A stretch of 64,000 bases of DNA from an uncultured Bacilli bacterium. Lineage in GTDB: Bacteria > Bacillota_I > Bacilli_A > RF39 > UBA660. Below, one piece after another: positions 519 to 20,500 of this stretch. The position numbers were made by a program, and so were the translations under genes. Under the pieces are notes generated by a model that saw nothing but the letters and a program-made list of their open reading frames with translations, was not told where the DNA came from and ran no database searches. The DNA is taken from NCBI GenBank assembly GCA_947626595.1, contig CANQST010000003.1, positions 8,396 through 72,395 of the forward strand, in the 5' to 3' direction. Numbering within the stretch: position 1 is the stretch's first letter; each line of letters starts with the position of its first letter.

Positions 519-1169
519 TTGAATAAGAAAAAATTAAAAGGAGAACGTAAATGGACCTACTATACTAAAAAAATATTAGAAGATATGATAAATACTGATA
601 AAGAATTAAATAAACATAAATATAAAATATATTGTGATACTGATGAAGCAAAAAAAACTTTAAGTGCTGTTGTTTCTTTAAATAAGTATATTAAATGTTC
701 TAATAATGAGATCCATGATATAGATAAATCAATTAACGATTTTACAAATAATAAATTTCATCCAGATATTTTAATTACAGAAGATGTTATTAATGAAGGC
801 ATATCATACTCTATACCTAGATTAGTAATTGAAAATAAATATAATGGTACAAGTTTTACACCTCATGAAATTTTAGCCTATAACTATAAAGCAGATTTAC
901 ATAAAAAATTATATCCAGGTCTTAGATATGGTCTTATTATAGGAAATAGTAGTTATATTAATAATACTACTATAAGATTTGGTAATAACTTTGATTTTAT
1001 TTTATCTTTAAGTGATGAAGTATCTGATAAAGAAAAAGAAAAGTTAATGGATATTGTCAAAAAAAACCTTGATTATGCAACTAAATTGGAAAGTATAATA
1101 GATGATAAGAATAAATCAATATCATGTGTATGCATAGAAAATAATATCGAGTTTGAAGATATAAAATAA
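519..1169 (+). CDS. hypothetical protein with a PD-x(n)-ExK nuclease-like motif (HPDILI...LVIENK); copy 1 of the duplicated cassette gene
   Basis: TTG start preceded by a GAGGTGA SD. Near-identical paralog at 7795-8433. The motif is read directly from the translation. Confidence 0.6.
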   Translation: MNKKKLKGERKWTYYTKKILEDMINTDKELNKHKYKIYCDTDEAKKTLSAVVSLNKYIKCSNNEIHDIDKSINDFTNNKFHPDILITEDVINEGISYSIPRLVIENKYNGTSFTPHEILAYNYKADLHKKLYPGLRYGLIIGNSSYINNTTIRFGNNFDFILSLSDEVSDKEKEKLMDIVKKNLDYATKLESIIDDKNKSISCVCIENNIEFEDIK

Positions 1170-1235
1170 TTTATAGGCATCTATCAAGTGCCTATTTTTT
1201 GTACTTAAGCTATAATAGTTATAGGAAGTGATATT

Positions 1236-1673
1236 ATGCCTGTAATTAAAAAAAATGTAAAAGCAAAAAGTAAAATAGAAATTGATGATAACGAAATTAA
1301 CGTTTATAACCATGAAACAATTAAAAATATTATTAGATATTTAAATGCTTATATGGAGGAAATTAATTTAGATAAAAAAATTTTATATTTTAGTTTTTAT
1401 AATTCAAAAAAATATTTAGTAGAAAATTATAGTTGCTTAAATAAAAAAAATATTGTAATAGTTGATAAGGATTACTTAAATGCTGACGATATAAAACGTT
1501 ATATTATCGAACAAAAACCAAGATATATATTTATTAATTATTATAAATTAACTTCAAATAGAGAAAATTTATTATTAATGAAAGAAAAATTAGGGCATGT
1601 ATTAAATAAGATAGAAGAATATAGTAAAAAATATAATGTAAAATTTATAGTAGCAATAAATAAAGAAGATTAA
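1236..1673 (+). CDS. hypothetical protein, present only in cassette copy 1
   Basis: 145-aa ORF flanked on both sides by the repeated RBS string ggaagtgat. No recognisable motif. Confidence 0.45.
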   Translation: MPVIKKNVKAKSKIEIDDNEINVYNHETIKNIIRYLNAYMEEINLDKKILYFSFYNSKKYLVENYSCLNKKNIVIVDKDYLNADDIKRYIIEQKPRYIFINYYKLTSNRENLLLMKEKLGHVLNKIEEYSKKYNVKFIVAINKED

Positions 1674-1677
1674 GGAA

Positions 1678-2721
1678 GTGATTGGATTGTATGAATATTT
1701 AAATAGTATAGCAAAAGAATACCTTACTAAGGAATTGAGAAGAAATTTTTTTAAGAAATTTGATTCCAAAGATCTATTTAGAAGATGTGAAAAAGAAATG
1801 GATATTCTTTATGATAGAGATTTACTTTTTATTGTTGAACACCTATATAAATTTAAAAAAGAAAATAAAAATGTTAGGTATCATTTTAGAGGTACTATAA
1901 ATAATCTACTACTCTTATATGTATTAGATATAAGTTATGTTAATCCTTTAGAATATAACTTACCTTATGAGTTGTTTAATGATAAAACTATTAATGTTGA
2001 TATAATTAATGAACCTAGTATCCTTTTTATCAATTACTTAAATAAACAAGCAGACAATTTTAAAATAGTTCATGGTAATTTTATAAAAGAAGATATAAGA
2101 GAAGTAAATAAATTCTTAGAAAATCATTATTTATTGTTACCTTGTGGTTATTTAGATAATAGTATGTTTTTAAAGTTTAATGATTTAGATACATTAGAAA
2201 CTATCGATGATTATAGAAACTATAAAGATAAATATATGACAATAAGAATAGATGAAAAAGATATAATAAGATGTGATAATGTATGTCTTGATAATGTATT
2301 TACTAATGATTTTGAAAGAGAAATGTCTAAAATTTTAAAACCTAAAACCATAAATGATTATATAAAAATAAAAAGTATGGCTCATGGTACTGATGTATGG
2401 AAGAATAACCAAGATAAGTTGTTTAAAGAAAAAAAGATAAATTTAGATAATCTAATTACAACACGTGAAGATATATTAGAATACCTATTAAATCACAAAA
2501 TAGATAAAGATGTTGCTTTAGATATTACTATGTTTATTAGTCTAGGGCAAGCACAAAAAGAGCCTATTAAATGGGAACAATACATTAAAATAATGAAAGA
2601 TAACAAGTGTGAAGAAATGTTTATTGATGTTTTCTCTAAAATATTATTTATCTTTGGTAGAGGTCAAGCAGTAAGTGAGTGTTTATATGCTTTAGATAAA
2701 AATAATTATATTGGAGAGTAA
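1678..2721 (+). CDS. miniature DnaE-like protein (homolog of the Pol III alpha palm entry region, lacks PHP and distal domains, catalytic Asp pair not conserved); copy 1
   Basis: HFRGTINNLLLLYVLDISYVNPLEYNLPYELFN aligns to the DnaE [35 protein letters not shown] block. The downstream SILFINYLNKQ...IKEDIREV resembles the RDEVIxYV...AIRDV block of DnaE. The PDxDxDF catalytic position reads VDIINEP. Confidence 0.55.
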   Translation: MIGLYEYLNSIAKEYLTKELRRNFFKKFDSKDLFRRCEKEMDILYDRDLLFIVEHLYKFKKENKNVRYHFRGTINNLLLLYVLDISYVNPLEYNLPYELFNDKTINVDIINEPSILFINYLNKQADNFKIVHGNFIKEDIREVNKFLENHYLLLPCGYLDNSMFLKFNDLDTLETIDDYRNYKDKYMTIRIDEKDIIRCDNVCLDNVFTNDFEREMSKILKPKTINDYIKIKSMAHGTDVWKNNQDKLFKEKKINLDNLITTREDILEYLLNHKIDKDVALDITMFISLGQAQKEPIKWEQYIKIMKDNKCEEMFIDVFSKILFIFGRGQAVSECLYALDKNNYIGE

Positions 2722-2724
2722 AAA

Positions 2725-3393
2725 ATGAATTCAGATACTAACAAACTATTTAAAGCAACTATAACATTTGAAAATGATAATTATATGACTATAGTTTTAT
2801 ATTTAATTTATAATGGTAAAGAAAAATTAAAAAATGTAGTTCCTCAAATAAAGTTTACAACTTGGGGTAATAAATATCTCTTAACTGTTGATATAAAAAA
2901 AATTAAAATTTTAGAAAAATTAAAAAAATTAGATAGCTATGATAAATTATATATAAATGATGTTTTAGAATATGTAAAAACACATCAACAACTATTATTA
3001 GAGTATTGGAACGCTGATATACCAGAGTTTGAAGCAAAACAAATATTTTTTGATGAAACTAATGATCATTTTGGTTGTACTAATTTAAGTAAAAAAAAGT
3101 CGGGTTTACCTATGAATTTAGTTTTATATTGTTCATATCTACTTGATAGAGATAATATATTATTTTTTCAAAATGATTATGGAAAACTTAATTATAATAA
3201 TATGATTATGATGAGTGTTGATAAAGAAAATCCACAAGTATTAGTAGATAGGAAAATAAATATAAAAGAAGAAGATATGATATTTTTAAAAAATTTTATT
3301 AAAAAACATTATAAAACAATAACAGACTATAACAACGATGAACTATATGACGCTGAAATATTTGATTTAATTGATGAAAGTTTAAATAATTAA
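2725..3393 (+). CDS. hypothetical protein
   Basis: 222-aa ORF immediately after the DnaE-like gene. No recognisable motif. Confidence 0.45.
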   Translation: MNSDTNKLFKATITFENDNYMTIVLYLIYNGKEKLKNVVPQIKFTTWGNKYLLTVDIKKIKILEKLKKLDSYDKLYINDVLEYVKTHQQLLLEYWNADIPEFEAKQIFFDETNDHFGCTNLSKKKSGLPMNLVLYCSYLLDRDNILFFQNDYGKLNYNNMIMMSVDKENPQVLVDRKINIKEEDMIFLKNFIKKHYKTITDYNNDELYDAEIFDLIDESLNN

Positions 3394-3416
3394 AAATATT
3401 AGTGGAGATGATGTAA

Positions 3417-3908
3417 ATGTTTTTAAAAAAAATACAACAAAAAAGATATAATAAAATTTTATTAAATGAATTAGAAAAAAAGATAGATATTACTACAGAT
3501 AATCTTATTGAACATCTATTAATGTGTTTATTACTTAAAGATTCAACTAATAATTTAAATCACTATAAAGATGAAGTATATTCAAGTTTTAATAAGACAT
3601 GTCTACTTATTGGTAATAATAAATTTCCTACTAAAAAAATTTTATATAATATTACATTAGATCAATTTAGTGATGTTTTACCTGCTTGGATAAATGGTTA
3701 TATAGAGAATATAAATTATAAAGAAAATGTTAATATAAATAATTATGATAGTTCTTTATTAACTAATTATATAATTGAATACTATAAATGGTTAATTTCT
3801 ATTTTAGCCAAAAGATATTTTGTTAAGCATGAAGAAGTAAATGATAAAATTAATATATTAATTAATAATTATGATAAAGAAACAACTATGAAAAATAATT
3901 ATGTATAA
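3417..3908 (+). CDS. hypothetical protein
   Basis: 163-aa ORF preceded by a GGAGATGA SD. Confidence 0.4.
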   Translation: MFLKKIQQKRYNKILLNELEKKIDITTDNLIEHLLMCLLLKDSTNNLNHYKDEVYSSFNKTCLLIGNNKFPTKKILYNITLDQFSDVLPAWINGYIENINYKENVNINNYDSSLLTNYIIEYYKWLISILAKRYFVKHEEVNDKINILINNYDKETTMKNNYV

Positions 3909-4377
3909 AGTAGGTGATATAAAATTGAAAATATATTCTGTTTTAGGACACTCAAAAGAATCAACTAATTTTAATTATGATTTAGTGTTAAATGAATTGA
4001 ATAAAGATTATAATATAAATGGGATAACTAGAATTGGTTTTACTGATAATGGTTATGAAGTTTTTATAATAACTGATGATGATTTATTAAGTGATGTACC
4101 ACACTTTCATTATCGTAAAAAACAGAAAAGTAAACCTAATGAATTTCATACTTGTATAAAAATAACTGATGTAGGATATTACCATCATATAGGTAATGAA
4201 GATAAATTAAATAAAAAACAAATAGATGATTTAATAAAATTTTTAAATTCTAAACCATTAAATACTAAACATTTTAAAAGTAATTGGGAGTTATTATTAT
4301 TTAGTTGGAATAGTCAAAATAACAATATAATAGTAAATCATAATTTAGAGATACCTAATTATAATAAATTAAAATAA
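3901..4377 (+). CDS. hypothetical protein
   Basis: 158-aa ORF overlapping the previous stop codon. Confidence 0.4.
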   Translation: MYKVGDIKLKIYSVLGHSKESTNFNYDLVLNELNKDYNINGITRIGFTDNGYEVFIITDDDLLSDVPHFHYRKKQKSKPNEFHTCIKITDVGYYHHIGNEDKLNKKQIDDLIKFLNSKPLNTKHFKSNWELLLFSWNSQNNNIIVNHNLEIPNYNKLK

Positions 4378-4639
4378 ATATTAAAAAGGATACAGGGAGA
4401 AAAGACAGTGATAGGGATTTTTTTAATGAAACTTCAGTAATTTTTCCCTGTGCTTTTTTTGTTGTTTTTAAACATTTTAATAGCTTTTTAGGGAAAAATG
4501 GAAGAATTTTTGTTTCTTAAGAATTTAAAAAACACAAAATAAAATATATTTATATATAAAATATTATATAAAAAGATATAAAAAAAAATTTAATAACTTT
4601 TTCCACTTATCCCTAAATACTATATAATCATTGAAAAAC

Positions 4640-4712
4640 AACGAAAAATAGTGGGGAAAAAATTAAAAAAATCTTCTCTAAAAGATCCCTTATTTAGAAG
4701 CTTCCCCACTCA
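4640..4712 (-). terminator. putative intrinsic terminator downstream of the recombinase gene
   Basis: Inverted repeat agtgggga/tccccact. On the minus strand the downstream arm is followed by a T-rich tract. Confidence 0.35.
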
Positions 4713-4723
4713 TATACTTATAT

Positions 4724-5332
4724 TTAACTATTTTTAACTAAATTATAAAAAGTATTAGGTTTTAAATTTAGTAGTTTCATAGCTTCACGAGCCGTGATTT
4801 TCTTATTCTTCCATTTATCGACTACTTCATCAAAATTATCAGGTTTATTTATTTTAGGTCTTCCAAAAGGTCTACCTGTTTTAGTTTTGCCTGTTTTTAA
4901 AGCTAAATCGATACCCTCACGCTGACGTGTTTTAATATAAGTCCTTTCTTGTTCAGCAACATAACTTAATATCTGTAATATTAAATCATTAATAAATGTT
5001 CCTAATAAATCTTTCTTTTGTCTAGTATCAAGTAGAGGCATATCTATTACTACAATATCAGCTTTTATATTTTTAGTGATATCTTTCCACTCATTAACTA
5101 TCATTTCATAATTTCTACCTAAACGATCAATACTTTTAATAAATAGAGTATCATTTTCTCTAAGTATATTTTTTAATAATTTATATTGTTCTCTATCGAA
5201 ATCTTTACCGCTTTTCTTATCGATATAAATATCTCTTTCTAATATACCAATATTTTTAAATGCTTCTATTTGTCGTGCTTCATTTTGTGATGTAGAAGAA
5301 ACACGACCATAACCATATTCTCTTTTTTCCAT
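4724..5332 (-). CDS. small serine recombinase (resolvase/invertase family) with a C-terminal HTH
   Basis: N-terminal YGYGRVSSTSQ catalytic-serine motif. Length 202 aa, typical of the Tn3 resolvase/Hin family. C-terminal HTH-like segment. Confidence 0.85.
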   Translation of the reverse strand: MEKREYGYGRVSSTSQNEARQIEAFKNIGILERDIYIDKKSGKDFDREQYKLLKNILRENDTLFIKSIDRLGRNYEMIVNEWKDITKNIKADIVVIDMPLLDTRQKKDLLGTFINDLILQILSYVAEQERTYIKTRQREGIDLALKTGKTKTGRPFGRPKINKPDNFDEVVDKWKNKKITAREAMKLLNLKPNTFYNLVKNS

Positions 5333-5384
5333 AGTTATATTCTCCTTTCACGTTGATTATATAATTGATTATGAAAGTCATCAC

Positions 5385-5520
5385 TATTATATTTGAAAAA
5401 GTATAAAAGGTTTTCAAATATTTAAAAATTAATAACTTGACTTTTCCAAACACAAAAAACACCTAGATTATCCATAAATCTAAGTGTTTGAAAATGTGTA
5501 CTTTTTCAAATACACATTTT
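5385..5520. promoter_or_regulatory. inverted-repeat cluster upstream of the recombinase gene; candidate res/crossover site or operator
   Basis: atttgaaaa-N11-ttttcaaat, aaaatgtgta-N10-tacacatttt and ttttccaaacac...gtgtttgaaaa, all within 140 bp directly 5' of the recombinase start. Confidence 0.3.
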
Positions 5521-5525
5521 TGTTA

Positions 5526-6464
5526 TTATGCCTTACATGGTCCCCATGATGTATTAGTTTCAGTATCAATACACTTAATATCGTTACTACCACATAAAAC
5601 ACATTTAAATTGGCCACTTTTTATTTCTTTAATATTTTCTTTACTTAATGTTTTTACTCCAATATAACCATGGCAATTATTACAACAAATTTTATATTTA
5701 AAACCCTCTTCAATTGCGTCTGGATCCGAACATGTTGTAACTCTATATATTGTATTATCATTAATTAGTTTTGCATACCTTTTCCATACTTTATCATGTC
5801 CTTTAGTATTAGTAAAAGCATGTAAAATTTCATGTATAAATATACTTATAAGGACCTTTTCTGAATATTTTAATATAAGATTACTTAATTCTATAATAGC
5901 ACTATTGTTGTTATATCTTATACATTGTCCTGCAGCATATGTTAGGTTTTCATTTAATCTGTACTGAATATCTTTAGTTAAGTATTTTTTTATTTCGTCT
6001 TCTCCAATAACCTCTTTTATTACATTAAGGGCTTCGAAATACCCTAATTTTATTTTCATGCTTTGACCTTTTGTTTTTTGTACTCTTTTATTAATAATAA
6101 GAGTAGGATTTTTCTTTCTAAGTAATATTACTTGACAAGGTGCAATTCCTCTTTCTATAATTTCTAGACCAGTTTTTTTATCCACCCAACAATATTTTGG
6201 AGTTAAGTAGAAAAAGTCTTTTTTTCCCTCTATAGTTATTTCTATTTTTAATGGGATTTGATAGTTATACACTACCTCCATTATTTCTTCTAATGTTTGT
6301 CTACTATTAAAAACTAGTTGTATATTTTCGACTGTTTCACTATAGAATTTGATATCTATTTTTTTTAAACTTCCTGTAATGTCCTCAAATAGTTTATTAG
6401 ATTTTGTTAATAACCTTATTTGTCCTATTTTTAAATCCATATTTTTTTTCCTCCTTTCGAACAA
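5526..6464 (-). CDS. SprT-like zinc metalloprotease with a C-terminal Cys-rich zinc-ribbon
   Basis: HEILHAFTNTKGHDKVW (HExxH...GH..W) followed by CCNNCHGY...CVLCGS...C. Confidence 0.5.
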   Translation of the reverse strand: MFERRKKNMDLKIGQIRLLTKSNKLFEDITGSLKKIDIKFYSETVENIQLVFNSRQTLEEIMEVVYNYQIPLKIEITIEGKKDFFYLTPKYCWVDKKTGLEIIERGIAPCQVILLRKKNPTLIINKRVQKTKGQSMKIKLGYFEALNVIKEVIGEDEIKKYLTKDIQYRLNENLTYAAGQCIRYNNNSAIIELSNLILKYSEKVLISIFIHEILHAFTNTKGHDKVWKRYAKLINDNTIYRVTTCSDPDAIEEGFKYKICCNNCHGYIGVKTLSKENIKEIKSGQFKCVLCGSNDIKCIDTETNTSWGPCKA

Positions 6465-6650
6465 ATAGTTATTGTTTTTACCTCATTTCTACAACAATTT
6501 TTTTCTGTTGTAATATTTAGTTACGAAAAAAAACTAAAAAAAAATAAAAAATTTAAAATTTTTTAATAAAAATTGATAAAAAATATATATTCTAACATGA
6601 AAAAAGCTGATAAAAATATTATCAGCTAGAGACTTTCAATAATTTTTTAA

Positions 6651-7034
6651 TTATAAAAAGTCATATTTATTTCTTTCATTTATACTAATTATTATAAATT
6701 TATTGGTCTTAGTTATTTTCATTAAAGAATTAAAACCATCATCAAAAGATGTAGCATAAAAGCTTTCTTTTGGAGAATTTTCATAGATTAATTCTATGTT
6801 GTAAATGCCATAAAAATCTTTCATATCATTTACTAGATCCTCATAAATTTCTGACCTATTTAAAACTAAAGTAAAATCTTTAAATGTAGAGTAGCTAGTA
6901 CAGATGTTATTTTCAATAATATAGTCTTTACTAACTCCACTTATAGTAATTTTATGAATTTCTTTTCCTTGATACTCATCTATTGGTATTAAAAATTCAT
7001 CGTTAAATCTTATTTCTCTTAATTTTTTATTCAT
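6651..7034 (-). CDS. hypothetical protein
   Basis: 127-aa ORF. No recognisable motif. Confidence 0.45.
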   Translation of the reverse strand: MNKKLREIRFNDEFLIPIDEYQGKEIHKITISGVSKDYIIENNICTSYSTFKDFTLVLNRSEIYEDLVNDMKDFYGIYNIELIYENSPKESFYATSFDDGFNSLMKITKTNKFIIISINERNKYDFL

Positions 7035-7368
7035 TAATTAACTCCTTTGTTTTCTGTAAAATTAATGTTATAAAATTATTTGCTTTTTAGATTAGTTAAT
7101 TTTTAATGTTCACATAATATCCTCCGTTTTGTCCTAGTACTTTAATATATAAAAAAATTTAAAAAAATTTTTTAAATTATTATTTATTATTAACTTGGAG
7201 TGGTATAATGATAAAGAAACCACTATTAAAAACATAACAGTTTGTTTTTAGATTAGTCAGCTCCACCATAGTGGTTACCAAACTCGGATTTTTTAAATTA
7301 TTTAATAAGTTCGAGTTTTAATATTTAATAATATATGATAAATGTTTTTAGTAATTAAGGGGAAAAAT

Positions 7369-7768
7369 ATGAAAAAAGAGTTAATTAAAACAAAAATAAA
7401 TGTTAATAACAATAAATAGGTATTTTAAGAATTGGCGATACCGACTATATATCATTAACTGATTTAGCAAAATATTCTAATCCTGAAAATGTGATAATAC
7501 ATTGGATGAGTAATAAAGGAACATTTGATTATATAGGATTATGGGAGAAATTAAAAATAACGAAGTTGGATATTCGTCATTTAATTTAAGTCCTAAAAGA
7601 TGGATTGATAGGACAAATGCCATAGGAATATATTCTAAAGGCGGAAAATATAGCACAGGGACATTTGCTCATCCTGATATAGCATTTGAATTTGCAAGTT
7701 GGTTAAGTCCTACTTTTAAATTATATTTGATTAAAGAATTTGAAAGATTAAAAAGAAATGAAATTTAA
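7369..7768 (+). pseudogene. KilA-N domain protein gene disrupted by two frameshifts in A-runs
   Basis: Three consecutive frames read MKKELIKTKINVNNNK / IGILRIGDTDYISLTDLAKYSNPENVIIHWMSNKGTFDYIGLWEKLK / NNEVGYSSFNLSPKRWIDRTNAIGIYSKGGKYSTGTFAHPDIAFEFASWLSPTFKLYLIKEFERLK. Joined, they reconstitute a canonical KilA-N domain. The shifts sit at aataaatagg (7411-7420) and ttaaaaataac (about 7550). Confidence 0.6.
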
Positions 7769-7782
7769 AAGACAAAAAATGA

Positions 7783-8433
7783 ATGGAGGTTAAAGTGAAT
7801 AAAAAAGAATTAAATGGAGAACGTAAATGGACACAGTATATTAAGAAATTATTAGAAGATATGATAAGTAATGATAAAAAATTAAATAAACATAATTATA
7901 AAATATATTGTGATACTGATAAAGCAAAAAAAACTTTAAGTGCTGTTATTTCTTTAAATAAGTATATTAAATATTCTAATAATATAGATAAATCAATTAA
8001 CGATTTTACAAATAATAAATTTCACCCAGATATTTTAATCATAGAAGATGTTGTTAATGAAGGCATATCATACTCTATACCTAGACTAGTAATTGAAAGT
8101 AAATATAATGGTACAAGTTTTACACCTCATGAAATTTTAGCCTATAACTATAAAGCAGATTTGCATAAAAAATTATATCCAGGTCTTAGATATGGTCTTA
8201 TTATAGGAAATAGTAGTTATATTAATAATACTACTATAAGATTTGGTAATAACTTTGATTTTATTTTATCTCTAAGTGATGAAGTATCTGATAAAGAAAA
8301 AGAAAAGCTAATGGATATTGTCAAAAAGAACCTTGATTATGCAACCAAATTGGAAAGTATAATAGATGATAAGAATAAAAAAATATCATGTATATGTATA
8401 GAAAATAATATTATGTTCAAAGATAAGAAATAA
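7783..8433 (+). CDS. paralog (copy 2) of the 519-1169 protein; the motif here reads LVIESK (E to S). True start is probably GTG at 7795 after the GGAGGT SD
   Basis: About 93-95% nucleotide identity to copy 1. It has a 12-nt deletion (EIHD) relative to copy 1. Confidence 0.6.
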   Translation: MEVKVNKKELNGERKWTQYIKKLLEDMISNDKKLNKHNYKIYCDTDKAKKTLSAVISLNKYIKYSNNIDKSINDFTNNKFHPDILIIEDVVNEGISYSIPRLVIESKYNGTSFTPHEILAYNYKADLHKKLYPGLRYGLIIGNSSYINNTTIRFGNNFDFILSLSDEVSDKEKEKLMDIVKKNLDYATKLESIIDDKNKKISCICIENNIMFKDKK

Positions 8434-8472
8434 TTTTGGGCACCTGTGTTTTTACTATTTAAGTTATAGGAA

Positions 8473-9513
8473 GTGATTAAATTGTATGAATATTTAAATA
8501 ATGTGGCAAAAGAATACCTTACTAAAGAATTGAGAAGAAACTTTTTTAAAAAGTTCGATTTAAAGGATCTATTTAGAAGATGTGAAAAAGAAATGGATAT
8601 TCTTTATGAGAGAGATTTACTTTTTATTGTTGAACACCTATATAAATTTAAAAAAGAAAATAAAAATGTCAAGTATCATTTTAGAGGTACTATAAATAAT
8701 CTACTGCTCTTATATGTGTTAGATATAAGTTATGTTAATCCTTTAGAATATAACTTACCTTATGAGTTATTTAATGATAAAGCTATTAATGTTGATATAA
8801 TTAATGAACCTAGTATTCTTTTTATCAATTATTTAAATAAACAAGCAGACAATTTTAAAGTAGTTCATGGTAATTTTATAAAAGAAGATATAAGAGAAGT
8901 AAATAAATTTTTAGAAAACCATTATTTATTATTACCTTGTGGTTATTTAGATAATAGTATGTTATTAAAGTTTGATGATTTAGATACATTAGAAACTATT
9001 GATGATTATAGAAACTATAAAGATAAATATATGACAATAAAAATAGATGAAAAAGATATAATAAGATGTGATAATGTATGTCTTGATAATGTATTTACTA
9101 ATGATTTTGAAAGAGAAATGTCTAAAATTTTAAAACCTAAAACCATAAATGATTATATAAAAATAAAAAGTATGGCTCATGGTACTGATGTATGGAAAAA
9201 TAACCAAGATAAGTTGTTTAAAGAAAAAAAGATAAATTTAGATAATCTAATTGCAACACGTGAAGATATATTAGAATACCTATTAAATCATAAAATTGAA
9301 AAGAATATAGCATTAGAAATCACAATGTTTATTAGTTTAGGAAAAATGAAAAAAGAACCTAATAAATGGAATGAGTATGTTGAAGTGATGAAAATATATA
9401 ATTGTGAAGATTTGTTTATAGAAATATTTTCAAAAATATTATTTATTTCCAGTAAAGGTCAAGCAGTAAGTGAATGTTTATATGTTTTAGATAATGATAA
9501 TTATTATATATAA
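8473..9513 (+). CDS. miniature DnaE-like protein, copy 2
   Basis: 346 aa. About 90% identical to 1678-2721 over most of its length and divergent at the C-terminus. Same RGTINNLLLLYVLDISYVNPLEYNLPYELF block. Confidence 0.55.
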   Translation: MIKLYEYLNNVAKEYLTKELRRNFFKKFDLKDLFRRCEKEMDILYERDLLFIVEHLYKFKKENKNVKYHFRGTINNLLLLYVLDISYVNPLEYNLPYELFNDKAINVDIINEPSILFINYLNKQADNFKVVHGNFIKEDIREVNKFLENHYLLLPCGYLDNSMLLKFDDLDTLETIDDYRNYKDKYMTIKIDEKDIIRCDNVCLDNVFTNDFEREMSKILKPKTINDYIKIKSMAHGTDVWKNNQDKLFKEKKINLDNLIATREDILEYLLNHKIEKNIALEITMFISLGKMKKEPNKWNEYVEVMKIYNCEDLFIEIFSKILFISSKGQAVSECLYVLDNDNYYI

Positions 9514-9723
9514 ATATTAGAAAGGCTAAGAATAAAGTTTAAAAAATGAAAAAGATGGTTTTTAAAATACGTTAAAATAGAGCGTACTGATATGAAATTC
9601 GGAAAACGTACTTGATAAAAATGCATTTTTATGTTACTATGAATTTGTCAAGGAAACTTGCATAAAATAAAAAAGGGAAATACTTAACTTTTGCACGCTG
9701 AGTACTTACCCCTATATAGGTTT

Positions 9724-9759
9724 GTACTTAATCTATTGTAGATTAAGTACTATTTTTTA
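9724..9759 (+). terminator. rho-independent terminator
   Basis: Perfect 10-bp stem gtacttaatc/gattaagtac with a 7-nt loop, followed by tattttttat. Confidence 0.55.
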
Positions 9760-9783
9760 TATTAAAATTTTTCTTTAGAATTA

Positions 9784-9792
9784 TGGTATAAT
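9784..9792 (+). promoter_or_regulatory. extended -10 promoter element (TGgTATAAT) for the GNAT gene
   Basis: tggtataat lies about 25 nt upstream of the ATG at 9817. Confidence 0.4.
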
Positions 9793-9816
9793 TTCTAGTA
9801 GAAAGCAGGGGGAAAA

Positions 9817-10374
9817 ATGTTAAAACTAATTCATGCTAATGATATGAACTTTAATAGTGTAAAAAATTATTATGACAGCTTTACCGATAAATGGAAAGAT
9901 TTAAACTGTTATGCCATTTCTCATGCCCAGTATGGACCTAATGAGTATTTTGATTTCGTTAATACTTATGAAAATAATTTGTTCTATTTAGTAGACGAAG
10001 ATAAAGAAGACTATATCATTGGTTTTGGCACGATTGAAGATGCCAAAATTCTTGATTATCACAAGGACTATCTAAATGCAGGAAATATTGGCTACGGAAT
10101 AAGACCTAATGAAAGAAAAAAAGGTTATGGTACCATGCTTTTAAAACTTCTTTTATTAGAATGTGAAAAAATGGGTATGTATGAAGTATGCATATCTTGC
10201 TTAGAAGAAAATATTGGTTCTAAAAAAATAATTATCAATAATAATGGCCTTTTAGAAAAAGAATTCTTTGACGACGACAGTGGCCAATATGCCCTTAAGT
10301 TTTGGATAAAGCTCCATCCTAAAATCATAAATAGAACCAAAAGATTAGTGAAAAGACTTAGAGAAGATTATTAA
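9817..10374 (+). CDS. GNAT family N-acetyltransferase
   Basis: GYGIRPNERKKGYGTMLL acetyl-CoA binding motif (Q/RxxGxG/A-like). Confidence 0.8.
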   Translation: MLKLIHANDMNFNSVKNYYDSFTDKWKDLNCYAISHAQYGPNEYFDFVNTYENNLFYLVDEDKEDYIIGFGTIEDAKILDYHKDYLNAGNIGYGIRPNERKKGYGTMLLKLLLLECEKMGMYEVCISCLEENIGSKKIIINNNGLLEKEFFDDDSGQYALKFWIKLHPKIINRTKRLVKRLREDY

Positions 10375-10391
10375 TATGGGGGGGATATAAA

Positions 10392-10955
10392 ATGAATATA
10401 ACTAAAACTAAAAATGAGTATGATACTTTTAATATAAAGTTAGAAGACGAAAACAAAGTTCTATCAATAAATCAAGTCGGACAAGACTTAAATATTGCCT
10501 GCAAATACAATGATTACCGTAAATTATCAGACATTTCATTTTCTATTTCCATAGAAAATGAAGAGTTATACTTCCCATTTAATAAACTTTATAGTAATAT
10601 AGTAGATGGTAATATTCTTGGTGAAGACATATCTTTAGATAGAGTAAAACAAACAAGTAACCTCGAAAAAAACACTAACTTATATCAAAAAATCGTCCAA
10701 AATGAAGTAATTACCATACTTTCTGATACTACTCCCATAGATTATCCTAATATTTTAAGAATTATCAAAGAGGAAGATAAAATAATTTTAAAGTTTGAAA
10801 AAGTTGAAGCTCATTTTAGAAAAATTCCTTTCTACATACCTATAGATATACGTACATCAGGCTCAAGACTTTATGACTTTTCCATTCCCTTTAAAACCCT
10901 ATTTAAAGAACTACAAAATCTTAAAGATAAAGAAAAATACTTAGTAAAGAAGTGA
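10392..10955 (+). CDS. hypothetical protein; its RBS consists of a G7 homopolymer
   Basis: 187-aa ORF. The G7 tract at 10378-10384 sits immediately upstream of the ATG. Confidence 0.5.
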   Translation: MNITKTKNEYDTFNIKLEDENKVLSINQVGQDLNIACKYNDYRKLSDISFSISIENEELYFPFNKLYSNIVDGNILGEDISLDRVKQTSNLEKNTNLYQKIVQNEVITILSDTTPIDYPNILRIIKEEDKIILKFEKVEAHFRKIPFYIPIDIRTSGSRLYDFSIPFKTLFKELQNLKDKEKYLVKK

Positions 10956-11365
10956 TATCAATGAAAAACCCTATTATAAGAATTTCCTTAATTATCCTTT
11001 GCCTTGCTCTCCTTTTAATCATATGTAACTTATCAATTAGATTTTTCAAATATATAAATATAAGAGGAACATATGAACAAATAGAAGGCAGCTTCATTGA
11101 AGAAGAATTAAAATTAAATTTCTTTAGCTGGACTATAGGCAAAAAAGAAGATTTAGAATGTGACCTATGGAACTGTACTGGCTATGAAAAAGGTAATATG
11201 TACTATATTAAAGATGGTTATTTATACCTTAGATATAATAAACATGGCGTAAGAGAAGCTGTTCAAATAAATATCAAAAAAGAAAATAAAATCACATATC
11301 TTATTATTAAAGAAAAAAATGCTGACAATAAATATACTACTAGTAAACTAAGAAAAATCGATTAA
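10952..11365 (+). CDS. hypothetical small membrane-anchored protein
   Basis: 137-aa ORF overlapping the previous stop codon. N-terminal TM helix. Confidence 0.45.
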   Translation: MISMKNPIIRISLIILCLALLLIICNLSIRFFKYINIRGTYEQIEGSFIEEELKLNFFSWTIGKKEDLECDLWNCTGYEKGNMYYIKDGYLYLRYNKHGVREAVQINIKKENKITYLIIKEKNADNKYTTSKLRKID

Positions 11366-11380
11366 TAATTAATGTAATTT

Positions 11381-11440
11381 AAACACTTTATCACAACTAT
11401 AAAAACTTGCTACAATTTTGTGAAAAAGTGTTTATTTTTA
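11381..11440 (+). terminator. long-stem terminator / palindromic operator upstream of the giant gene
   Basis: aaacactttatcacaa ... tttgtgaaaaagtgttt form 16-bp inverted arms with a 20-nt spacer, followed by a T-rich tract. An extended -10 (tggtataat) follows. Confidence 0.45.
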
Positions 11441-11512
11441 GCGACTTTTTTGGTATAATAAAGAGGCAATTTTGAAGAAGTGCTTAAATATGTTTAATAA
11501 GGGAGTTTTGTT

Positions 11513-14500
11513 ATGTTGAAATTAAGTAAAAAATATCTATTAATTCTTTTAGCTGGAGTAGTTTTCCTATTTAGTGGGAAAGTATCTGCTAAAGAAATAA
11601 TTTTACAAACCAATTCTAAAGAAGTGAACGTTGAAGATACTGTCACTTTAAATGTTTCTGTTGATAATGAAGATCAATCTTTATATGCCTTAAAAGCTAA
11701 ATTAAGTTATGATAAAGATGTTTTTGAAGTGCTAGAAGAAAAAGATTTTTCTGAAGAAATAGAAGACATTGTTTATAATGAACAAAATAATGAGTTTGTT
11801 ATTTTAAATAAAAAAGGTTCCAATGACAACTTATTTACAATTAATTTAAAAGTAAAGAAAGATGCTTTAAATGGTAAAACCACTTTAACATTAAGCAATT
11901 TAGAAGTATCAAATGGAACTGATAGCACTAAATATGATAAAAAAAGTGTTACTTTAAATGTTAAAGGTGGTAAAGATGTTACTGCTACAACTACTACCAA
12001 AAATAATAAAACTAAAAATGCTAAAAAGACTTTAAATGTTAAAAAGACACTATTAATTTCTGCTATAGCGCTCCTTATTTTAATGGCTTTAATTGCCTTT
12101 ATTAATTCTGATTACTTTGAAAAACTTAATCTAATAAAAAAAGAAAATAAAAATAAAGTATCTATTGTTATTGCGCTTATTATCATTTTAGCGGACATCA
12201 TTCTAATATCTTTATTAGGTTTTAATGCTGTTAATAAAGGTGATGTAGATAAAGATGGTAAAAAAGATTATAAAGATATACGTAAGATAAGTGAATATTT
12301 ACTTAATGTAACTAATGGTGGTAAAACATCTTCTAGTCTTAAAAATACTTTAAATTATTATAATGCTGACTACAATGGTGATGGTAAAGTTACTTTAGAC
12401 GATGTTGCCGCTCTAACTCAAGATGTAAATAATAAAACAGTTTATGAAGTAGAAGTAGCTAAAAGTTCTATAGAAAATTATTATCCTAGTAAAAACGGTA
12501 ACGTTGAAGTAAATCTATCATTTATTGTTAACCCTAGTGATAATATTTATGTTGAAAGTGTTTTTGCTAACGGCAAATACTATAAAGTAACTAAAGATAA
12601 TGATAATTATTATGCAAGTATAAAAGTTACTGATAAAGCTGGTATTAATGATATCGTTATTTCTAAAGTTAAACTAAGTAATGGTAAAGAAATAAATATT
12701 AAGCCATATACTTTAAAAGTTGATGTCTTAAAAGAAGCTCCTAGTATTAAAAACTTTGATTTTACTAATGAAGGAAAAGTATCTTTTGAACTTGTTGATA
12801 AAGATAATTCATTAGAAAAAGCTACTTTAGTAGTATTAAATAATGACGAAATAGTTACTACTAAAAAGGTAAAGAAAGATTTAAATACTTTCGAATTATC
12901 TTTAGAAAAAGGTATTAATTATACTATAAAAATACTTACTGATTATGACTTAGATAGTTCTAAAGATAATGATAAAAATGCCTTTACTGATAAATTAATT
13001 TATATGAAGCAAGTACAGCTATATGATGTTGGACTAAAACTAAATAGCGTAAGTAACAATTATCCACTTAAAGGAGAAAAAGTAACTGTTTATTTTACTG
13101 CTAGTAGTAATGTTCAAGAAGTACTTATTGATAATAAATACTATACTGTTACTAAGAATAATGATTTATATAGTTTTACTATAGATGCTCCAAATGAAGC
13201 TGGATTATCTAAATATCAAGTGACAGGTGTTATTCTAGATAGTGGTGAGTTTAGAACTAAGATGGACTTTAGTTTTGATGTCTTAAAAGATAAGCCAACT
13301 GTTAAAAATCTTATGTTTGACTACAATAGTCATACAATTACTTTCGATGTAGTTGATAAAGATAAATCTCTAAGTACTTTAAAATTACAAGTTATAAATA
13401 ATGAAACTAAAGAAGAAGCATTTACTAAAGACTTAGATACTGAAAAAAGTACTTTCTCATATAAAGCTGATTTAACTTTAGGCGCAACTTATTCCATTAA
13501 AATTACTGGAAATTATGACTTAGATAGTAAAAAAGGAAATGATAATTTCTATCAAGATTATTCTCTTTATAACCATGTTATTACTATTGATAAAGTTTCT
13601 ATTAAGAGTGTTACTGATTTAGATAATTTATTCCCTAAACAAAATGAAAATATTGAAGTAGCTCTTGATATTGATATCTATCCTACTAAAACAAAAGTTA
13701 CTAAAGTAGTTATTGATGGTAAAGAAACAGATGTTGTATATAAAGATGGTCATTATTATATAACTTTTAATGAAAAAACTTCTGGCATAAAGAAACATAC
13801 TATAAGTTCTATTATTCTTGAAAATAATACTGAAGTACCTACTAACTTTAATATTAAATTAGATGTTTTAAAGGAAAAACCAGCTGTTAAAAACTTTGCT
13901 TATTCAACTGCTAGTAAGACTATAAGTTTTACTTTAGAAGATAAAGATAAATCTATTAAGAATGCTAAGATAGTTGTTACTTCTAAAGAAAATGGTAAAA
14001 AAGTTTTAGAAGAAAAACTAGATTTAGCTAAGTCTTTATTTGAGCTTAAAATAGATTTAACTGAAAGTGCTAAATATGATGTTAATATTATAGCTAACTA
14101 TGATTTAGATAGTGATAGTACTAATAATAAAAATGAAATAGAAGAGAATTTATATACTTATCAATTAACTGTTTATGGAGTTAAATTAACTAGCGTTCAA
14201 GATACTTATTACGCTAAAAAGAATGAAGAAATAGAATTGAAGTTTAAAGCTGAAATTACTCCTGAAGATAATGGTAGTATTATAAGTGCCGTTACTATTG
14301 ATGGTAAAGTTTATGATGTAATTAGAAATATTGAAGGAACTTACAGCGTCTTTATAAAAGCAAAAGATACATCAGGAAATAAGAAATATACTATTACTAG
14401 CGCTACTGTTGGCGAAACTGAATATGCAACTAAACTAGGTTTTAATGTATATGTTTTAAAAGATAAACCTACTATAGAAGATTTATATATAGACGAAAGT

Positions 14501-17500
14501 AAAAGTGTACCAGTAATTACTTTTAACTTAAAAGATAATGACAGTGCTTTAGATAAAGGTTATGCTTATATTAAAGATGGATCAGGTAATGAAGTAGAAA
14601 AATTTACTCTTAAGAAAGGTAAGAATTCTATTGATTTAAAAGATATTGCCACTAACTTAAAAGATGGTGCGACTTACTACTTAGATGTTAAAGTTAATTA
14701 TGACTTAGACGATACTAAGAATAATAAGTATGAAACAGAAGAGTACCTTATAAATAATCATATCGTTAAAATATATAAAGTAAAATTATCTCTAGGAGAA
14801 AATAATCCTTACTACGTTAATAAAGACGAAGAAGTAAATATCAAAATAAATGCTACTGGTAAAGACTTAGATACTGTTAGAGTTAAGACATTTATTATTG
14901 ATAATAAAGAATATGAAGCTATTTATAATAATGGTAGTTACTATGTAAAAGTTAAAACTCCTACTACTTCTGGAATAAAGACATATAACATTACTAAAGT
15001 AGTTTTAACTAATGATATTGAAGTATCTTCAAGTTTAGAAATTAAACTAGATGTTCTAAAAGATACTCCTTATATAAATAAATTTAATCTTAATGAAGAA
15101 AATGGTTTAATTACCTTTGAACTTGTTGATAAAGATAAAGCTTTCCAAAATGGTGATGTATCTATTTCTAATGAAACAGGAAATTTAATTACTAAAGAAG
15201 TAAAAGAAAAGACTACAATTACCTACAAGTTCTTAGAAGATATGAATTATAATATTAAAATTACTGGTAATTATAATCTTGATAGTGATACTACTAATGA
15301 GGAAAATTTATATACTGATGTTGAAATGTTTAGTCATGACTTTCTTATTGGAGGTAATTATCAATTTACTTTAAATGATTTATCTATAACAGACTCTTTA
15401 ACTAAGAGTGAAAAACCTGTTGTATCATTCACAAGTTCTAATATGAAGAATGCTACTATTAAAGAAGTTGTTATTAATGGTAAAAAATATAATGTCTCTA
15501 AAGTAGATGGTAATTATTATGAAGTAATTCTTAATGATGCCCAAATGACATCAGGTAAACATAAAGTTGAATTAGAAAGTGTTACTCTAGATACTATGAA
15601 GACTTTTAAGAATAATTTAGACTTTTCTACTAATAGCTTAACTTATAGTGTTTTAAAAGATGCTCCAAGTATTAAGAATATTAATCTTACTAGTAATAAT
15701 ACTGATAAGACTATAACTGCTACTTTCAATCTAGAAGATAAAGATACTACTTTAACTAGATTAAAAGCCCTACTAGTTGACTCTGCTGATAAGATAATTG
15801 CTGAACAAGAATTAACTCCAGAGATGGTTTACTTATTTGATACTTCTAGTGTTACTTTATCTTACTTAGATAATGCTGATGGACATGTTGATGGTTATTA
15901 CAAAGTTAGATTTTTAGCGGACTACGATTTAGGAGAAGAAAAATATCTTTATAGTGATAAAAATGTTGGTGAAAAAGATATTTTAGTTCAAAAAGATTTA
16001 ATTTATATTAAAGATATTTATATTGCCGATAGTAGAGGTAATAAAATAGATAATTTATATCCAAGTAAAAAACAAAAGAATTATCAAGTTGTAGTAGATG
16101 TATATGTTGATAATAGTATTAATGATTATGCTAGAAGTAAATATGGTAATAGAGCTTATCAAAAAGTCTCTGTTGTAACTATTAATGGTGTTGATTATAG
16201 TGCCGATAAACTAAATGATTATAGGTCTAAAATTACTTTAGATGTCCCTGATACCTCAGGTATTCTTAACTTAACTGTTAATAGAGTTCAACTTGAATAT
16301 GCTGATTACAATGTTAGCTTTAGACAATTCTACTCTGTACCTGAAAAATCTATTAAGATAGATGTTTTAAAAGATACTCCTACTATTAAAAATTTAAGTA
16401 TTAAAGAAGACTATGCTAAAGCAAGCGCAACATTCGATTTTGATGTTGTCTTAGACGAAAAAGCTAAAGAAAAAGACGAAAGTTTCAAAAATGGTAGTAT
16501 TGCTCTAGGTGAACTTCGTCAAAATATAAATAGAGGTCATAATTCTATTACCTTTAATAATATTAAGAAAGACGAAAACTTAGATTTAGTCTTTGAAGGA
16601 AGCTATGATCTTGATACCGATACTTTAGAAACAACAGATCAAAATGAATATGAAAACAAAGAAATCTATAGAGTAAATTATGGTCTATATGATAAAGAAA
16701 CATATGAAGATATCAAAATAACAGATGGTCTATCTCTAAGTAAAAATAATAATAACTATTTTGAAAAGAATGAAGATATCAAATTAAACTTTAATGTAAC
16801 TGGCATCAAAGAAGAATTAGGCTTAGATGTTGAAAAAGTTATTATTAAAGATAAAGAATATCCTATAACTAAAAAAGATAAGTATGAAGTTACTTACGAT
16901 AGTTATAATACTTTTGGTCAAAAAGAAATTACTATTACTGGTGTTGTTCTAAGTAATGGTAAGAAAGTTGACTTAAAGAAACCTTATACTTTTAAACCAG
17001 AAATACTAAAAGATAATATCAGTTTAGATAATTATAAAGTAGAAGTTCAAAATAATAAGATTAAAATTACTTCTAACTTAAAAGATAGTGATAATTCTTT
17101 AATTAAAGCTAATATTAAAATAACTACTGAAAATGGTAAAGAACTAGTAAATAAACCATATGAAGAAGAAATTACTATTGATAAAGTTAAAGATGTTTTA
17201 AGATATTATGTTGAAGTATATGCAAGTTATGATAGAGATATTGATATTACTGAAGGAAGTTCTAACTATTATGAGACTAAATTACTAGAAGAAATAATTT
17301 CCTTTGAAGAAAATGTTATTGAACTTAAAGATATTACTGACATAAATTTATATAAAGCTGAAAAAGATAACTCTATAAATCTTTTAGATACTGTTAACGT
17401 TAATGATTTGGAGAAAAATTTAGATAACTACTTTATTGAAATTAATATGGAAAATGCTCCAAGTGTTCATGCTAATATTAAGAAAATAACTACTAAAGAT

Positions 17501-20500
17501 AATGAATTAATGTTAGTATTAGACTTTGATAATGTATCTAAAGAAAATGTTAAAGGAAAAGAGTTTAGTATCTTCTTTGGTAATATAGAAAATAATAAAG
17601 CTACTAATGAAACACATCCTGATGTTGCATTTAAGACATTATTAAAACGTCTTGAAAGTAATGAGGACATAGTCTTAAAACAAAACTATGATGCTAGTTT
17701 AATATCTGAAGACACTAAGTATTATGTTGATAATTATAGTGGAAAACTAGATGGAAATGGCTTTACTATTAAAAACCTAGAAAAACCATTATTTAATAAA
17801 TTAACTAATGCTAATATTAAGAATTTAATTTTAGAAAATGTTGTTCTAGATAGTAATGGTAGAGGTGCTTTAAGTAATGATGCATCTTCCACAACTGTGG
17901 AAAATGTTATAGTAAATCGTGTTACTAAGAAAAGTGCAAGTAATGGTCAAAATGGTGGTTTAATTGGAAATGTTAATACTCGTAGTACTATCAATTCTTG
18001 TGCCGTAAAAAATATTGACTTTAATATTGGCAATGCTCAACAAAATGGTGGTTTAGTTGGATATGCTGAAAACTCTACTATCAGTAATAGTTACGCTATT
18101 GGTAAAGTAAATGGTGGCTGGAACTTTAATGCTGGTTTTGTAGGTAATACTGCTAATACAACATTTACTAATAACTATTCTAAAGTAAGCGTTACTGGTT
18201 ATACTATCTGTGACTTTGCTTGTAGTTATCTAGGTCAATCAAGTTACCACAATAATATATCTTTAGGAGGTACTAATCGAGGTTTTGTAAATAAGTATAG
18301 TTCTATTTCTAATAACTACTACTTAGTTACTGATGGAAGTATAAGTACTAATAAAGACATTACTAATATCACAGCTGAACAAGTTAATACTAATCTATTT
18401 AAACAAGCTAAGTTTGATAGTAGTATATGGCGTTTAGATAACGTTACTTATGAAAATACTCCATTATTACAAACTGAAAAAATAACTTCTATGGATGAAA
18501 GTATTAATGGTTATGATAGTACTAAGACAATTCTTTATAATAACTTAATGAAATTAATGCCATATTACAGTAATGAAAAAATAATTACTATGGCTAAAAA
18601 CATCAAAGATAATTACTTAAATACTAAAGAAATTATGCATATCTTACCAGTTGATAAAAATGGTAATATTGTAACATACTTAACAAATGATAATGTTAAG
18701 AGAATTAGTAAAATAAAAGTAGTCTATAAAACTAAAGAAAAACAAGAATTTAATGTAACATATGATAATACATATGACTTTGTCGCAACTTATCGTATAG
18801 TTGATTTAAAAATTGATTATAACTACAAAAATTACATAATTGATAGTAATTCTCAAGTTGTAAATAACTTAACTAATTACTTGAAAAAATTAAATTATAC
18901 TGATAATTTAGATATCTTAACTTCTACTGGAGATAGTAGAATATATAGAGATTTCTATAATGAGACAACTGTTAATGAATTAAAAGAGTTTGTTCTATCT
19001 TATCTATCTAATAGTAATTATAATAATATAACTAATAATGATATTATAACTACTCATATTGAAAAAGAAGTAAAAGAAGATAAGAAAATAGAAAAGATAC
19101 TATATATGTATAACTACTTTAGACGTTTCTATGACTTAGATATTGATGGTATTAAGTTATATCAATTTATGCTATTTAATATGGATGGTTTTGATAGTAG
19201 TTTAACTCCAAAAAAGATTGCTAACTTATTCTTAAGTGATGGAACTAACTTCAATACTAATGAAACAAATACTAGATATCAAAAAATCTTTAGCAACTAT
19301 ACTAATCTAAATACTATATCTAAATTCTTAGAGTATATGGTTACTGAATTTAGTGATTTAGATATGGATAAATGGACTGCTTCACAATTTAAAGGATATC
19401 TAGCTGAAGTACCAGTAGATGGACATCCTGAAGTATTATATACTTTATGGGATCACTTTAGTAATGAAGATGCTACATACCATAACCCTTATCAAATATA
19501 TAACTATGTATTACCAATCTTAACTTTACCAAAAGATGCTGCCTACATTATATCTAGTCCTGTTCAATTTATAATAGGTGCCCAAAGGACTTATATAGTT
19601 GATCCAAGCAATGAAGAGGAACAAGCATTATTAAGAAGAAAAGTTAAGAGTTATACTGATAGAATGAGTAATTATTACAATACAGCTTATGGTTTCTTAC
19701 AAGATGCTAAAGTATTTAATGATATTCATACTTACCAATTAGATAAGCGTTATACTAAAGGCGCTAATGGAGAAACTATTTTCCATAACCCATATGTAAC
19801 AGAAGAACCATTCCACAAGAACTTAAATGAAGTAATGAACCAATGGGCATACAATGATTATAATGCCGCAACCGCTAATGGAACTCAGATAATTTGGCGT
19901 GTTGAAGGATTAATGGATGGTAACTTAATCCCTGAACTTGGTAATGTTCAAGAATATACATATCAGACTTGGTCACATGAGTCAGCACATAACGTTGATG
20001 CTAGATTATTCTTACGTAATAATGGTAGAAGATATGATGCTGGTGGAGAAGATTATGCTGATGGTAACTTAACTCAAAGTTTTGGTCAAAATGACATTGT
20101 TATGAACTTATCAGTTAATTATGATGCCGGTAGTAGAGTTGGTGCTAACCTTACATATGATAGAATTGCTTCACCTAGCAAAATTCATGATTTCTATCAA
20201 AAAGTTTTTGATACTATATATATAATGGATTATATAGAAGGAAAAGCTTTCTTAGAATTAAATGATAAAGAAAAATCAGGTGTAGCTGTTCAAGTTATGT
20301 ATCCAAATGAGAATTTAGAAGGAGAAGACAAAACCCATCTTAAATACAAATACACAGTATATCAGCATATAGACGAAGATAAGTATAAAGCTATGAAACT
20401 AAATTCTATTGAGGATCTATACAAAGAAAAATTAGTAATATTCCCTAATGTTTATTACTCAACCTATACTGATAATAGATACGGTGGCGAAGGTATAAAT

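Follow-up and report, generated by a model that had tools for sequence, protein, structure and literature searches.

Here, we describe a 347-amino-acid (aa) protein of an uncultured Bacilli bacterium that is a new inactivated, miniaturised variant of a well-known enzyme family, the C-family DNA polymerases. Its gene, which we call mini-PolC, lies in a 64,000-nucleotide stretch of contig CANQST010000003.1 (assembly GCA_947626595.1, positions 8,396 to 72,395), hereafter the window. Of PolC, the protein has the Pol-beta-like palm and the proximal fingers, with the thumb reduced to about half, and the sequences of its relatives indicate that the catalytic triad of the parent enzyme has been given up. 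We put a probability of about 85% on the reading that mini-PolC is a stand-alone, inactive PolC derivative, or "pseudo-polymerase", which acts as a non-catalytic binding module within a mobile or variable-island gene module.

An inactive, PolC-derived miniature polymerase relative is undescribed in recent surveys of the C family. Two large surveys discarded truncated or active-site-less sequences, and the only C-family members they list are PolC and DnaE1-3 (PMC3919608, PMC12926913). The later one, from 2026, recognises four C-family groups and calls the PHP domain universal in the family; inactive homologs appear in it under the Y and X families, but none is described for the C-family core (PMC12926913). 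Our literature searches likewise found no described inactive C-family homolog, and no PolC-like defence component.

Homology to PolC

The open reading frame (ORF) is present as an earlier, sequence-only reading of the window had described it, and the homology to DNA polymerase III (Pol III) alpha proposed there is recovered by every method used, at scores far above chance. Two Pfam domains, the palm (PF07733, "NTPase"; residues 11-102) and the fingers (PF17657; residues 210-254), score above their gathering cut-offs, which places the protein among those with a C-family polymerase core. Compared with PDB sequences by phmmer, it matches the PolC of Enterococcus faecium (E-value 5e-15) and that of Geobacillus (E-value 1e-11), and a family profile finds the same two at 5e-23 and 8e-19. 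When a 38-member family alignment is compared by hhalign with five bona fide PolCs, residues 34-340 align with positions 843-1274 of S. aureus PolC (E-value 5e-20) at a probability of 99.3%, against the 90% that the sequence-only reading had set beforehand as its refutation threshold. The AlphaFold2 model computed on the family alignment is compact, with a predicted local distance difference test score (pLDDT) of 94.8 and a predicted template-modelling score (pTM) of 0.91, and structure prediction and fold search both back a polymerase core.

Sequence comparison places the ancestry of mini-PolC in the PolC branch, not the DnaE branch. It had at first been called DnaE-like, which was right as to its derivation from a polymerase and wrong as to the type. 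The PolC equivalog models of NCBIfam align to residues 208-339 only (E-value 1e-23), and their scores of 82.2 and 79.3 bits, against cut-offs of 873 and 1043 (NF001688, TIGR01405), fall far short of those of a full-length PolC; the DnaE models match nothing but the N-terminal palm, at E-values of about 1e-4 to 1e-5. Identity to DnaE-type Pol III alpha (Taq, 2HPI; E. coli, 5M1S) is 13-14%, against 22% for PolC, which is the closer of the two, and the fingers block is 30-33% identical to that of PolC (Geobacillus kaustophilus, 3F2B; E. faecium, 9QPC). The fingers motif, moreover, has the PolC form HGT and not the form RPGP of E. coli DnaE.

Many residues that are invariant in PolC are retained. 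These include R36 and E40 (RLEKEL in PolC), G72, P96-Y-E98 (PFE), D102-K103 (D959-K960 in PolC), P155, T175 and D178, H236-G-T-D-V-W241 and R263-E-D265 followed by Y269-L270. Written as motifs, PolC and mini-PolC have in common R..E in the first palm helix, RG, P(F/Y)E, DK, HGTDVW, R(D/E)D..YL and F.F(P/G)(K/R). An F-x-F-G-R block of mini-PolC corresponds to Y-M-F-P-K of PolC, within which F1276 of the E. faecium enzyme positions the incoming nucleotide (PMC12592400). Three colinear blocks had been proposed by eye. The first (RGT..NPL..YELF against GRGS..DPL..FERF) and the C-terminal one (ALDITMFISLGQ against A..L/IM..(R/V)RKGK) are recovered by alignment; the middle one falls in the right region, although its register is off by several residues.

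At 345 aa, compared with about 1440 aa for PolC, mini-PolC lacks the N-terminal domain, the OB domain, the PHP domain, the DnaQ exonuclease, the zinc-finger insert, the clamp motif and the duplex-binding domain. The alignment to PolC opens at the first palm helices (residue 34 against PolC 843), and Pfam matches likewise start at the palm; therefore, the N-terminal, OB, PHP and exonuclease domains are all missing, and the earlier statement that there is no PHP domain stands. Also gone from the core is the zinc-finger insert (about S. aureus 909-945); the thumb segment is cut to roughly half, and the protein stops at about PolC 1274-1288, where the PolC fingers run into the clamp-binding and duplex-binding regions. 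A clamp-binding pattern, Q-x-x-[LIVM]-[FLWY] (QxxLF-like), occurs in only 1 of 115 family members. Both marks of a replisome-integrated Pol III alpha, the beta-clamp motif and the C-terminal duplex-/tau-binding region, are thus absent. The aligned lengths are 307 residues in the mini protein and 432 in PolC, so that it covers about 70% of the equivalent region, more than the half that had been estimated. We also considered an acidic isoelectric point (pI) as a case against DNA binding and dropped it, because the equivalent core of PolC is equally acidic (pI 4.8-5.6).

The catalytic site

In the hhalign register, DKTINVDIIN of mini-PolC pairs with DKVPDIDLNF of PolC, and the catalytic residues D963 and D965 of S. 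aureus PolC fall on N106 and D108. For the third catalytic Asp (KLD1088ILG in PolC), the most plausible match is D192, which lies in the predicted strand MTIRIDE. Where an active C-family polymerase has the carboxylates of PDxD and K-x-D-x-L-G, mini-PolC has N106, D108 and D192. The sequence-only reading had recognised that the catalytic Asp motif is lost and had put D108 on the first Asp; the alignment puts it on the second, with N106 on the first. MAFFT gives a third register for the DxD site, and the first two catalytic positions are never both acidic under any of the three.

The same picture holds across the family. Among 115 full-length members, the three catalytic positions are acidic in 16, 89 and 88, respectively, and all three carboxylates are present together in only two. 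The residue at the first metal-ligand position is C, N, S or K in most members. The glycine/serine-rich loop, RGSVGSS in PolC, reads RG(T/M)xNN in the family, with both N nearly invariant, and about 65 other positions are at least 93% conserved. As judged from these alignments, the catalytic triad is no longer maintained. What selection maintains is therefore not polymerase catalysis. In E. faecium PolC, the double mutation D972A+D974A leaves no polymerase activity (PMC12592400).

Family breadth and selection

A word-indexed search yields 120 clusters of proteins of 333-370 aa, with identity down to 37%. An exhaustive representative search yields 1564 proteins at E-values of 1e-3 or below; the mini family ranks at the top, and many other PolC-like proteins, either 300-450 aa or 650-820 aa long, come next, ahead of canonical PolCs. 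No source gives a name to any of the 120 clusters, and the databases checked do not name the family, in line with the earlier remark that such proteins lie outside annotation vocabularies. The ratio of nonsynonymous to synonymous substitution rates (dN/dS) against close homologs is 0.17-0.28. A dN/dS of about 0.2, together with some 65 conserved positions and no conserved triad, argues that mini-PolC is a selected non-catalytic protein and not a pseudogene.

The hosts are almost all uncultured low-GC gut "Bacilli", "Tenericutes" and "Clostridia", represented by metagenome-assembled genomes (MAGs) from rabbit, mouse and human. Among 72,556 plasmids, there are two distant cases and practically no close relatives, and the 2.9 million contigs of IMG/VR give a single distant match. 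PHROGs has no match to mini-PolC. In the phage GenBank records of INPHARED, matches are confined to the PolC fingers region and include no close relative, and BFVD holds only full-size phage DnaE polymerases. No model in PADLOC-DB v2 matches mini-PolC, and its operon neighbours have only weak partial matches there (E-values of 3e-4 or above).

Gene, operon and genomic island

The window is a piece of chromosome that carries rpsL, rpsG, fusA and tuf at 21.5-25.8 kilobases (kb). Mini-PolC lies upstream of these genes in an island of low guanine-plus-cytosine (GC) content, and there are two copies of it in the window (Table 1). The GC content is about 20% around the gene versus 28-36% across the remaining window. 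The listed start of copy 1 is a GTG. The true start is probably the TTG at 1687, which would give a protein of 344 aa; this codon is favoured because a Shine-Dalgarno sequence, GGAAGTGA, lies just upstream and most homologs begin MYEYLN. Copy 2 has the same TTG/Shine-Dalgarno arrangement. Copy 1 ends in a TAA stop codon, and therefore no alternative genetic code can fuse it to the ORF that follows in the same frame.

Table 1. Features of the window around mini-PolC; the last row refers to plasmid pCY186
Feature	Coordinates	Strand	Remarks
216-aa protein	519..1169	+	duplicated with the mini-PolC gene; repeats D1, D3; own hairpin 1173-1195
DnaB_C-related protein, 145 aa	1236..1673	+	first operon gene; stop 4 nucleotides before the mini-PolC ORF
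Mini PolC-like pseudo-polymerase, copy 1	1678..2721	+	palm, reduced thumb, proximal fingers
"F1a" partner, 222 aa	2725..3393	+	no assigned fold; GGAGAG Shine-Dalgarno within the mini-PolC 3' end
"F8" conserved operon member, 163 aa	3417..3908	+	recurs in L003, L005, L017, L026
"F1b" DUF4160-related protein, 158 aa	3901..4377	+	last operon gene
Small serine recombinase (resolvase)	4724..5332	-	Pfam Resolvase, E-value 3e-23; travels with the operon
216-aa protein, second copy	7783..8433	+	directly upstream of mini-PolC copy 2; 90% identical to 519..1169
Mini PolC-like pseudo-polymerase, copy 2	8473..9513	+	346 aa; probable start TTG 8482
Short polymerase genes of pCY186 (L002)	5059..6501 and 7911..8909

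Copy 1 is the second gene of an operon (1236..4377), which a terminator scan finds preceded by a terminator-like hairpin at 1173-1195 and free of any within. The product of the first gene aligns with a 212-aa DnaB_C-like family found beside mini-PolC at other loci (hhalign probability 95%, E-value 4e-8), over that family's positions 40-129 only; the 212-aa family itself matches Pfam DnaB_C at an E-value of 3e-23. No Walker A motif (GxxxxGK[ST]) is visible in the 145-aa sequence, which is apparently a second inactivated replication-protein derivative in the operon. Downstream, the F1a gene is translationally coupled to mini-PolC, since its Shine-Dalgarno sequence sits inside the mini-PolC 3' end. 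F1b belongs to the same BLAST family as F1a, and a fused 347-aa homolog of this F1 family, at locus L018, matches DUF4160 (E-value 1.3e-6). F8 has no family match in Pfam, PHROGs, PADLOC or NCBIfam. The block from 1164 to 5512, which comprises the operon and the resolvase gene, is 89-95% identical to two MAG contigs (L003 and L026) with different flanks.

Copy 2 is identical to copy 1 at 306 of 344 residues (89%, BLASTP), with a dN/dS of 0.22 between them, and was duplicated jointly with the 216-aa gene upstream. Its region contains direct repeats D2 and D12, and the terminator scan places a terminator-like hairpin after it, at 9724-9750. The 216-aa protein has no match in Pfam, NCBIfam, PADLOC or PDB. 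A likeness of its HPDILI...VIENKY to PD-(D/E)xK nucleases, seen by eye only, was set aside on account of these negative searches, and the protein is unrelated to a 251-aa protein encoded upstream of a distant PolC-like relative (L043, below). The repeat analysis of the window brought no origin-like repeats to notice.

Several other genes share the island, among them GNAT and helix-turn-helix (HTH) genes. Between the mini-PolC copies, and adjoining the resolvase gene, is the gene of a 312-aa protein with a SprT-like metalloprotease domain and a Cys-rich C-terminal region (5526..6464, minus strand). A 75-aa ORF, also between the copies (7541..7768, plus strand), contains FAHPDIAFEFASWLSPTFKLYLIKEFERLK and may represent a truncated KilA-N/Bro-type DNA-binding domain of a mobile element, which it resembles. 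Further downstream, a giant ORF of 3178 aa (11513..21049, plus strand) has only weak dockerin type I and GLUG motif matches and probably encodes a surface or adhesin-like protein; a gene 66-67% identical to it adjoins the mini-PolC locus in L005.

Neighbourhoods at other loci

We counted neighbours within 6 kb at 31 loci that carry the mini gene. A DnaB_C-like gene is present at 11 of them, the 222-aa F1 family at nine, and an upstream family, F2, also at nine. Replication-derived genes recur in other forms as well: the partner family includes a fusion to DnaB_2 (PF07261), and at L021 a DnaA-type AAA+ gene lies directly downstream of mini-PolC. In another lineage, a Fic gene is found upstream of mini-PolC, and DnaB_C and Macro genes downstream. 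Two diverged mini-PolC paralogs are found at each of L004, L005 and L007, with a dN of about 0.38 between the types. In L005, the F1-type gene after one paralog differs from that after the other, a hint that there may be two subtypes, each paired with its own F1 gene. At six loci (L006, L013, L014, L023, L028 and L029), the gene right beside mini-PolC encodes a DUF1810 protein of about 140 aa. The N-terminus of F2 bears a weak resemblance to the PolC OB domain (hhalign to the OB region, 16% probability, E-value 0.0015), from which it might derive.

Other short C-family relatives

Beyond the mini family, other short C-family proteins likewise consist of palm and fingers, are found on plasmids or recombinase-bearing elements, and mostly have a seemingly disrupted DxD. 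They are 22-30% identical to the mini family and differ from it in size and domain set. The motif scan of the representative hits, done with regular expressions, was crude, and only its clear positives are used here. Inactivation of short C-family relatives appears, from these motifs, to be recurrent. Plasmid pCY186 of Butyrivibrio proteoclasticus encodes a full PolC, a 332-aa PolC-like protein and a 480-aa DnaE-like protein, all within a cluster of dnaX, DnaA/Hda and DnaB genes. The DxD region reads S-I-E in the 332-aa protein and PSYCIRIDV in the 480-aa protein. An FtsH-like AAA protease-domain protein is encoded between these two short polymerases. Similarly, a 710-aa Lachnospiraceae protein with PHP, palm and fingers has N-L-D at the DxD site, and a 426-aa PolC-like protein on IMG/VR contig UViG_3300045608_000323 (L043) has A-I-D. 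The gene order around the latter (6311..13973) is HTH, the 251-aa protein (without assigned function), a metallo-beta-lactamase (MBL)/RMMBL hydrolase of beta-CASP type, the PolC-like protein and two large serine recombinases; this may be a cargo module.

Some short relatives have kept their motifs. DKxPD(I/L)D(L/I) and K(L/F)DIL are intact in P0156 (454 aa), P0195 (438 aa) and a 914-aa Cetobacterium protein, and these three may be active. The Cetobacterium protein, annotated as a hypothetical protein on plasmid p3 of C. somerae (L001, 3768..6512), has palm and fingers with EKVPDLDI and KLDILS. It has no Pfam PHP match, and its N-terminal region of about 490 residues has no Pfam match at all; it may be an unusual active plasmid polymerase.

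What mini-PolC may do

We propose that mini-PolC is a binding module that carries out no catalysis. Of the whole protein, the fingers block is best preserved; in PolC, this block forms the pocket that receives the primer end and the incoming nucleotide. From the preservation of this block, the likeliest target of mini-PolC is a primer-template junction, a nucleotide or a replisome partner. The small DnaB_C-like and DUF4160-type proteins would be its partners, within a mobile or variable-island module that may either control the replication of an element or take part in element-host conflict. We do not choose between these two.

Several observations weigh against this proposal. About three quarters of the family (~77%) keep an acidic residue at D108 and at D192, and some metal or nucleotide chemistry is therefore possible. 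The register of the third Asp was obtained by matching strands, since hhalign has a gap at this point. In the fingers, the mini-PolC of the window has S-L in place of the Arg-Lys pair of PolC (VRKGK), which in C-family structures touches the triphosphate, and the nucleotide-binding reading is weakened accordingly. About a dozen of the 31 loci (about a third) have no recurrent neighbour, and in one lineage mini-PolC sits between housekeeping genes for translation and the cell wall; the protein may therefore act alone or with host proteins. Finally, no characterised homolog supports any particular binding function, and no defence-system model of PADLOC-DB v2 convincingly fits mini-PolC or its operon partners.

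A less likely alternative is that mini-PolC is a non-catalytic accessory subunit of a mobile-element replication module, which, with DnaB_C-like ATPases, DnaA-like AAA+ proteins and DnaD-like proteins, recruits or modulates the host polymerase at an element origin. The recurring replication-derived neighbours (DnaB_C, DnaA-type AAA+, the DnaB_2 fusion) are in keeping with such a role, as are the joint movement of operon and resolvase and the two mini polymerases of pCY186, which lie inside a complete plasmid replisome gene cluster. However, a role of this kind is hard to reconcile with the near-absence of close relatives from the plasmid and viral collections. Nor were origin-like repeats noticed; mini-PolC has no clamp-binding motif, and the DnaB_C-like neighbour in the window, without a Walker A motif, is itself probably inactive.

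Slightly less likely still is a role as a sensor or decoy in anti-phage or inter-element conflict, in which the dead PolC core, by mimicking the host replicase or by binding intermediates of phage replication or phage anti-replisome factors, would trigger a partner effector. The setting would suit it: a low-GC variable island with resolvase, SprT-like, GNAT, HTH and KilA-N-like genes, copies duplicated and diverged within single loci, Fic and Macro genes nearby in one lineage, and the distant 426-aa inactivated relative with its neighbours, an MBL/beta-CASP-type hydrolase and two large serine recombinases. Against this, mini-PolC has no PADLOC match and its neighbours only weak ones, no recognisable effector is consistently linked to it (the nuclease-like motif of the 216-aa protein is unsupported by any search), and several loci are solitary or lie among housekeeping genes.

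We consider it improbable that mini-PolC is still an enzyme, whether a nucleotidyltransferase or another catalyst, with a site remodelled around D108, D192/E193, E98, D102, N75 and N76. The frequent acidity of D108 and D192 fits this idea, as does the conservation of E98, D102, N75 and N76, which align at or close to positions flanking the PolC catalytic motifs. Yet there is no conserved acidic triad (complete in 2/115), and the first metal-ligand position is mostly occupied by C, N, S or K. Furthermore, true PolC shares E98 and D102-K103 (as E951 and D959-K960), which do not belong to the catalytic residues mutated there, so that no new chemistry is needed to explain their conservation. Finally, although the protein is short, lacks the catalytic residues and most PolC domains and sits in a 20%-GC island, a decaying polC fragment or a chance ORF in AT-rich DNA is refuted by the constant length of more than 120 clusters while identity drops to 37%, the dN/dS of about 0.2, the roughly 65 positions at least 93% conserved, the compact AlphaFold2 model (pLDDT 94.8, pTM 0.91), the Shine-Dalgarno sequences and the intact translational coupling to the next gene.

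Implications for the C family

A parallel to mini-PolC is found in the Y family, whose inactivated members (iPolY), ImuB among them, are also dead polymerase homologs under selection. ImuB is a non-catalytic partner of DnaE2 and ImuA' (PMC12926913). The analogy is one of principle only. ImuB belongs to an unrelated fold and family, has known partners and carries a clamp-binding motif, whereas mini-PolC lacks a clamp motif and has candidate partners suggested by gene neighbourhood. Tentatively, and at odds we would not put high, mini-PolC may be the best-sampled clade of an uncatalogued superfamily of inactivated, domain-stripped PolC- and DnaE-derived proteins, serving as non-catalytic DNA-end or replisome sensors or adaptors in the mobile-element replication and conflict modules of gut Firmicutes. 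If so, the C family would have its own equivalent of ImuB and the other inactivated Y-family polymerases.

C-family polymerases have been treated as obligatory, PHP-containing, active replicases. A dead PolC core without a PHP domain shows that this family, like the Y, X and B families, also yields pseudo-enzymes. PolC is a current antibiotic target, and mini-PolC offers a compact, confidently modelled protein for probing the palm-fingers core without chemistry. Should it prove to bind replisome partners, nucleotides or the ends of primers, mini-PolC could uncover a new route by which mobile elements or defence islands engage the Gram-positive replisome.
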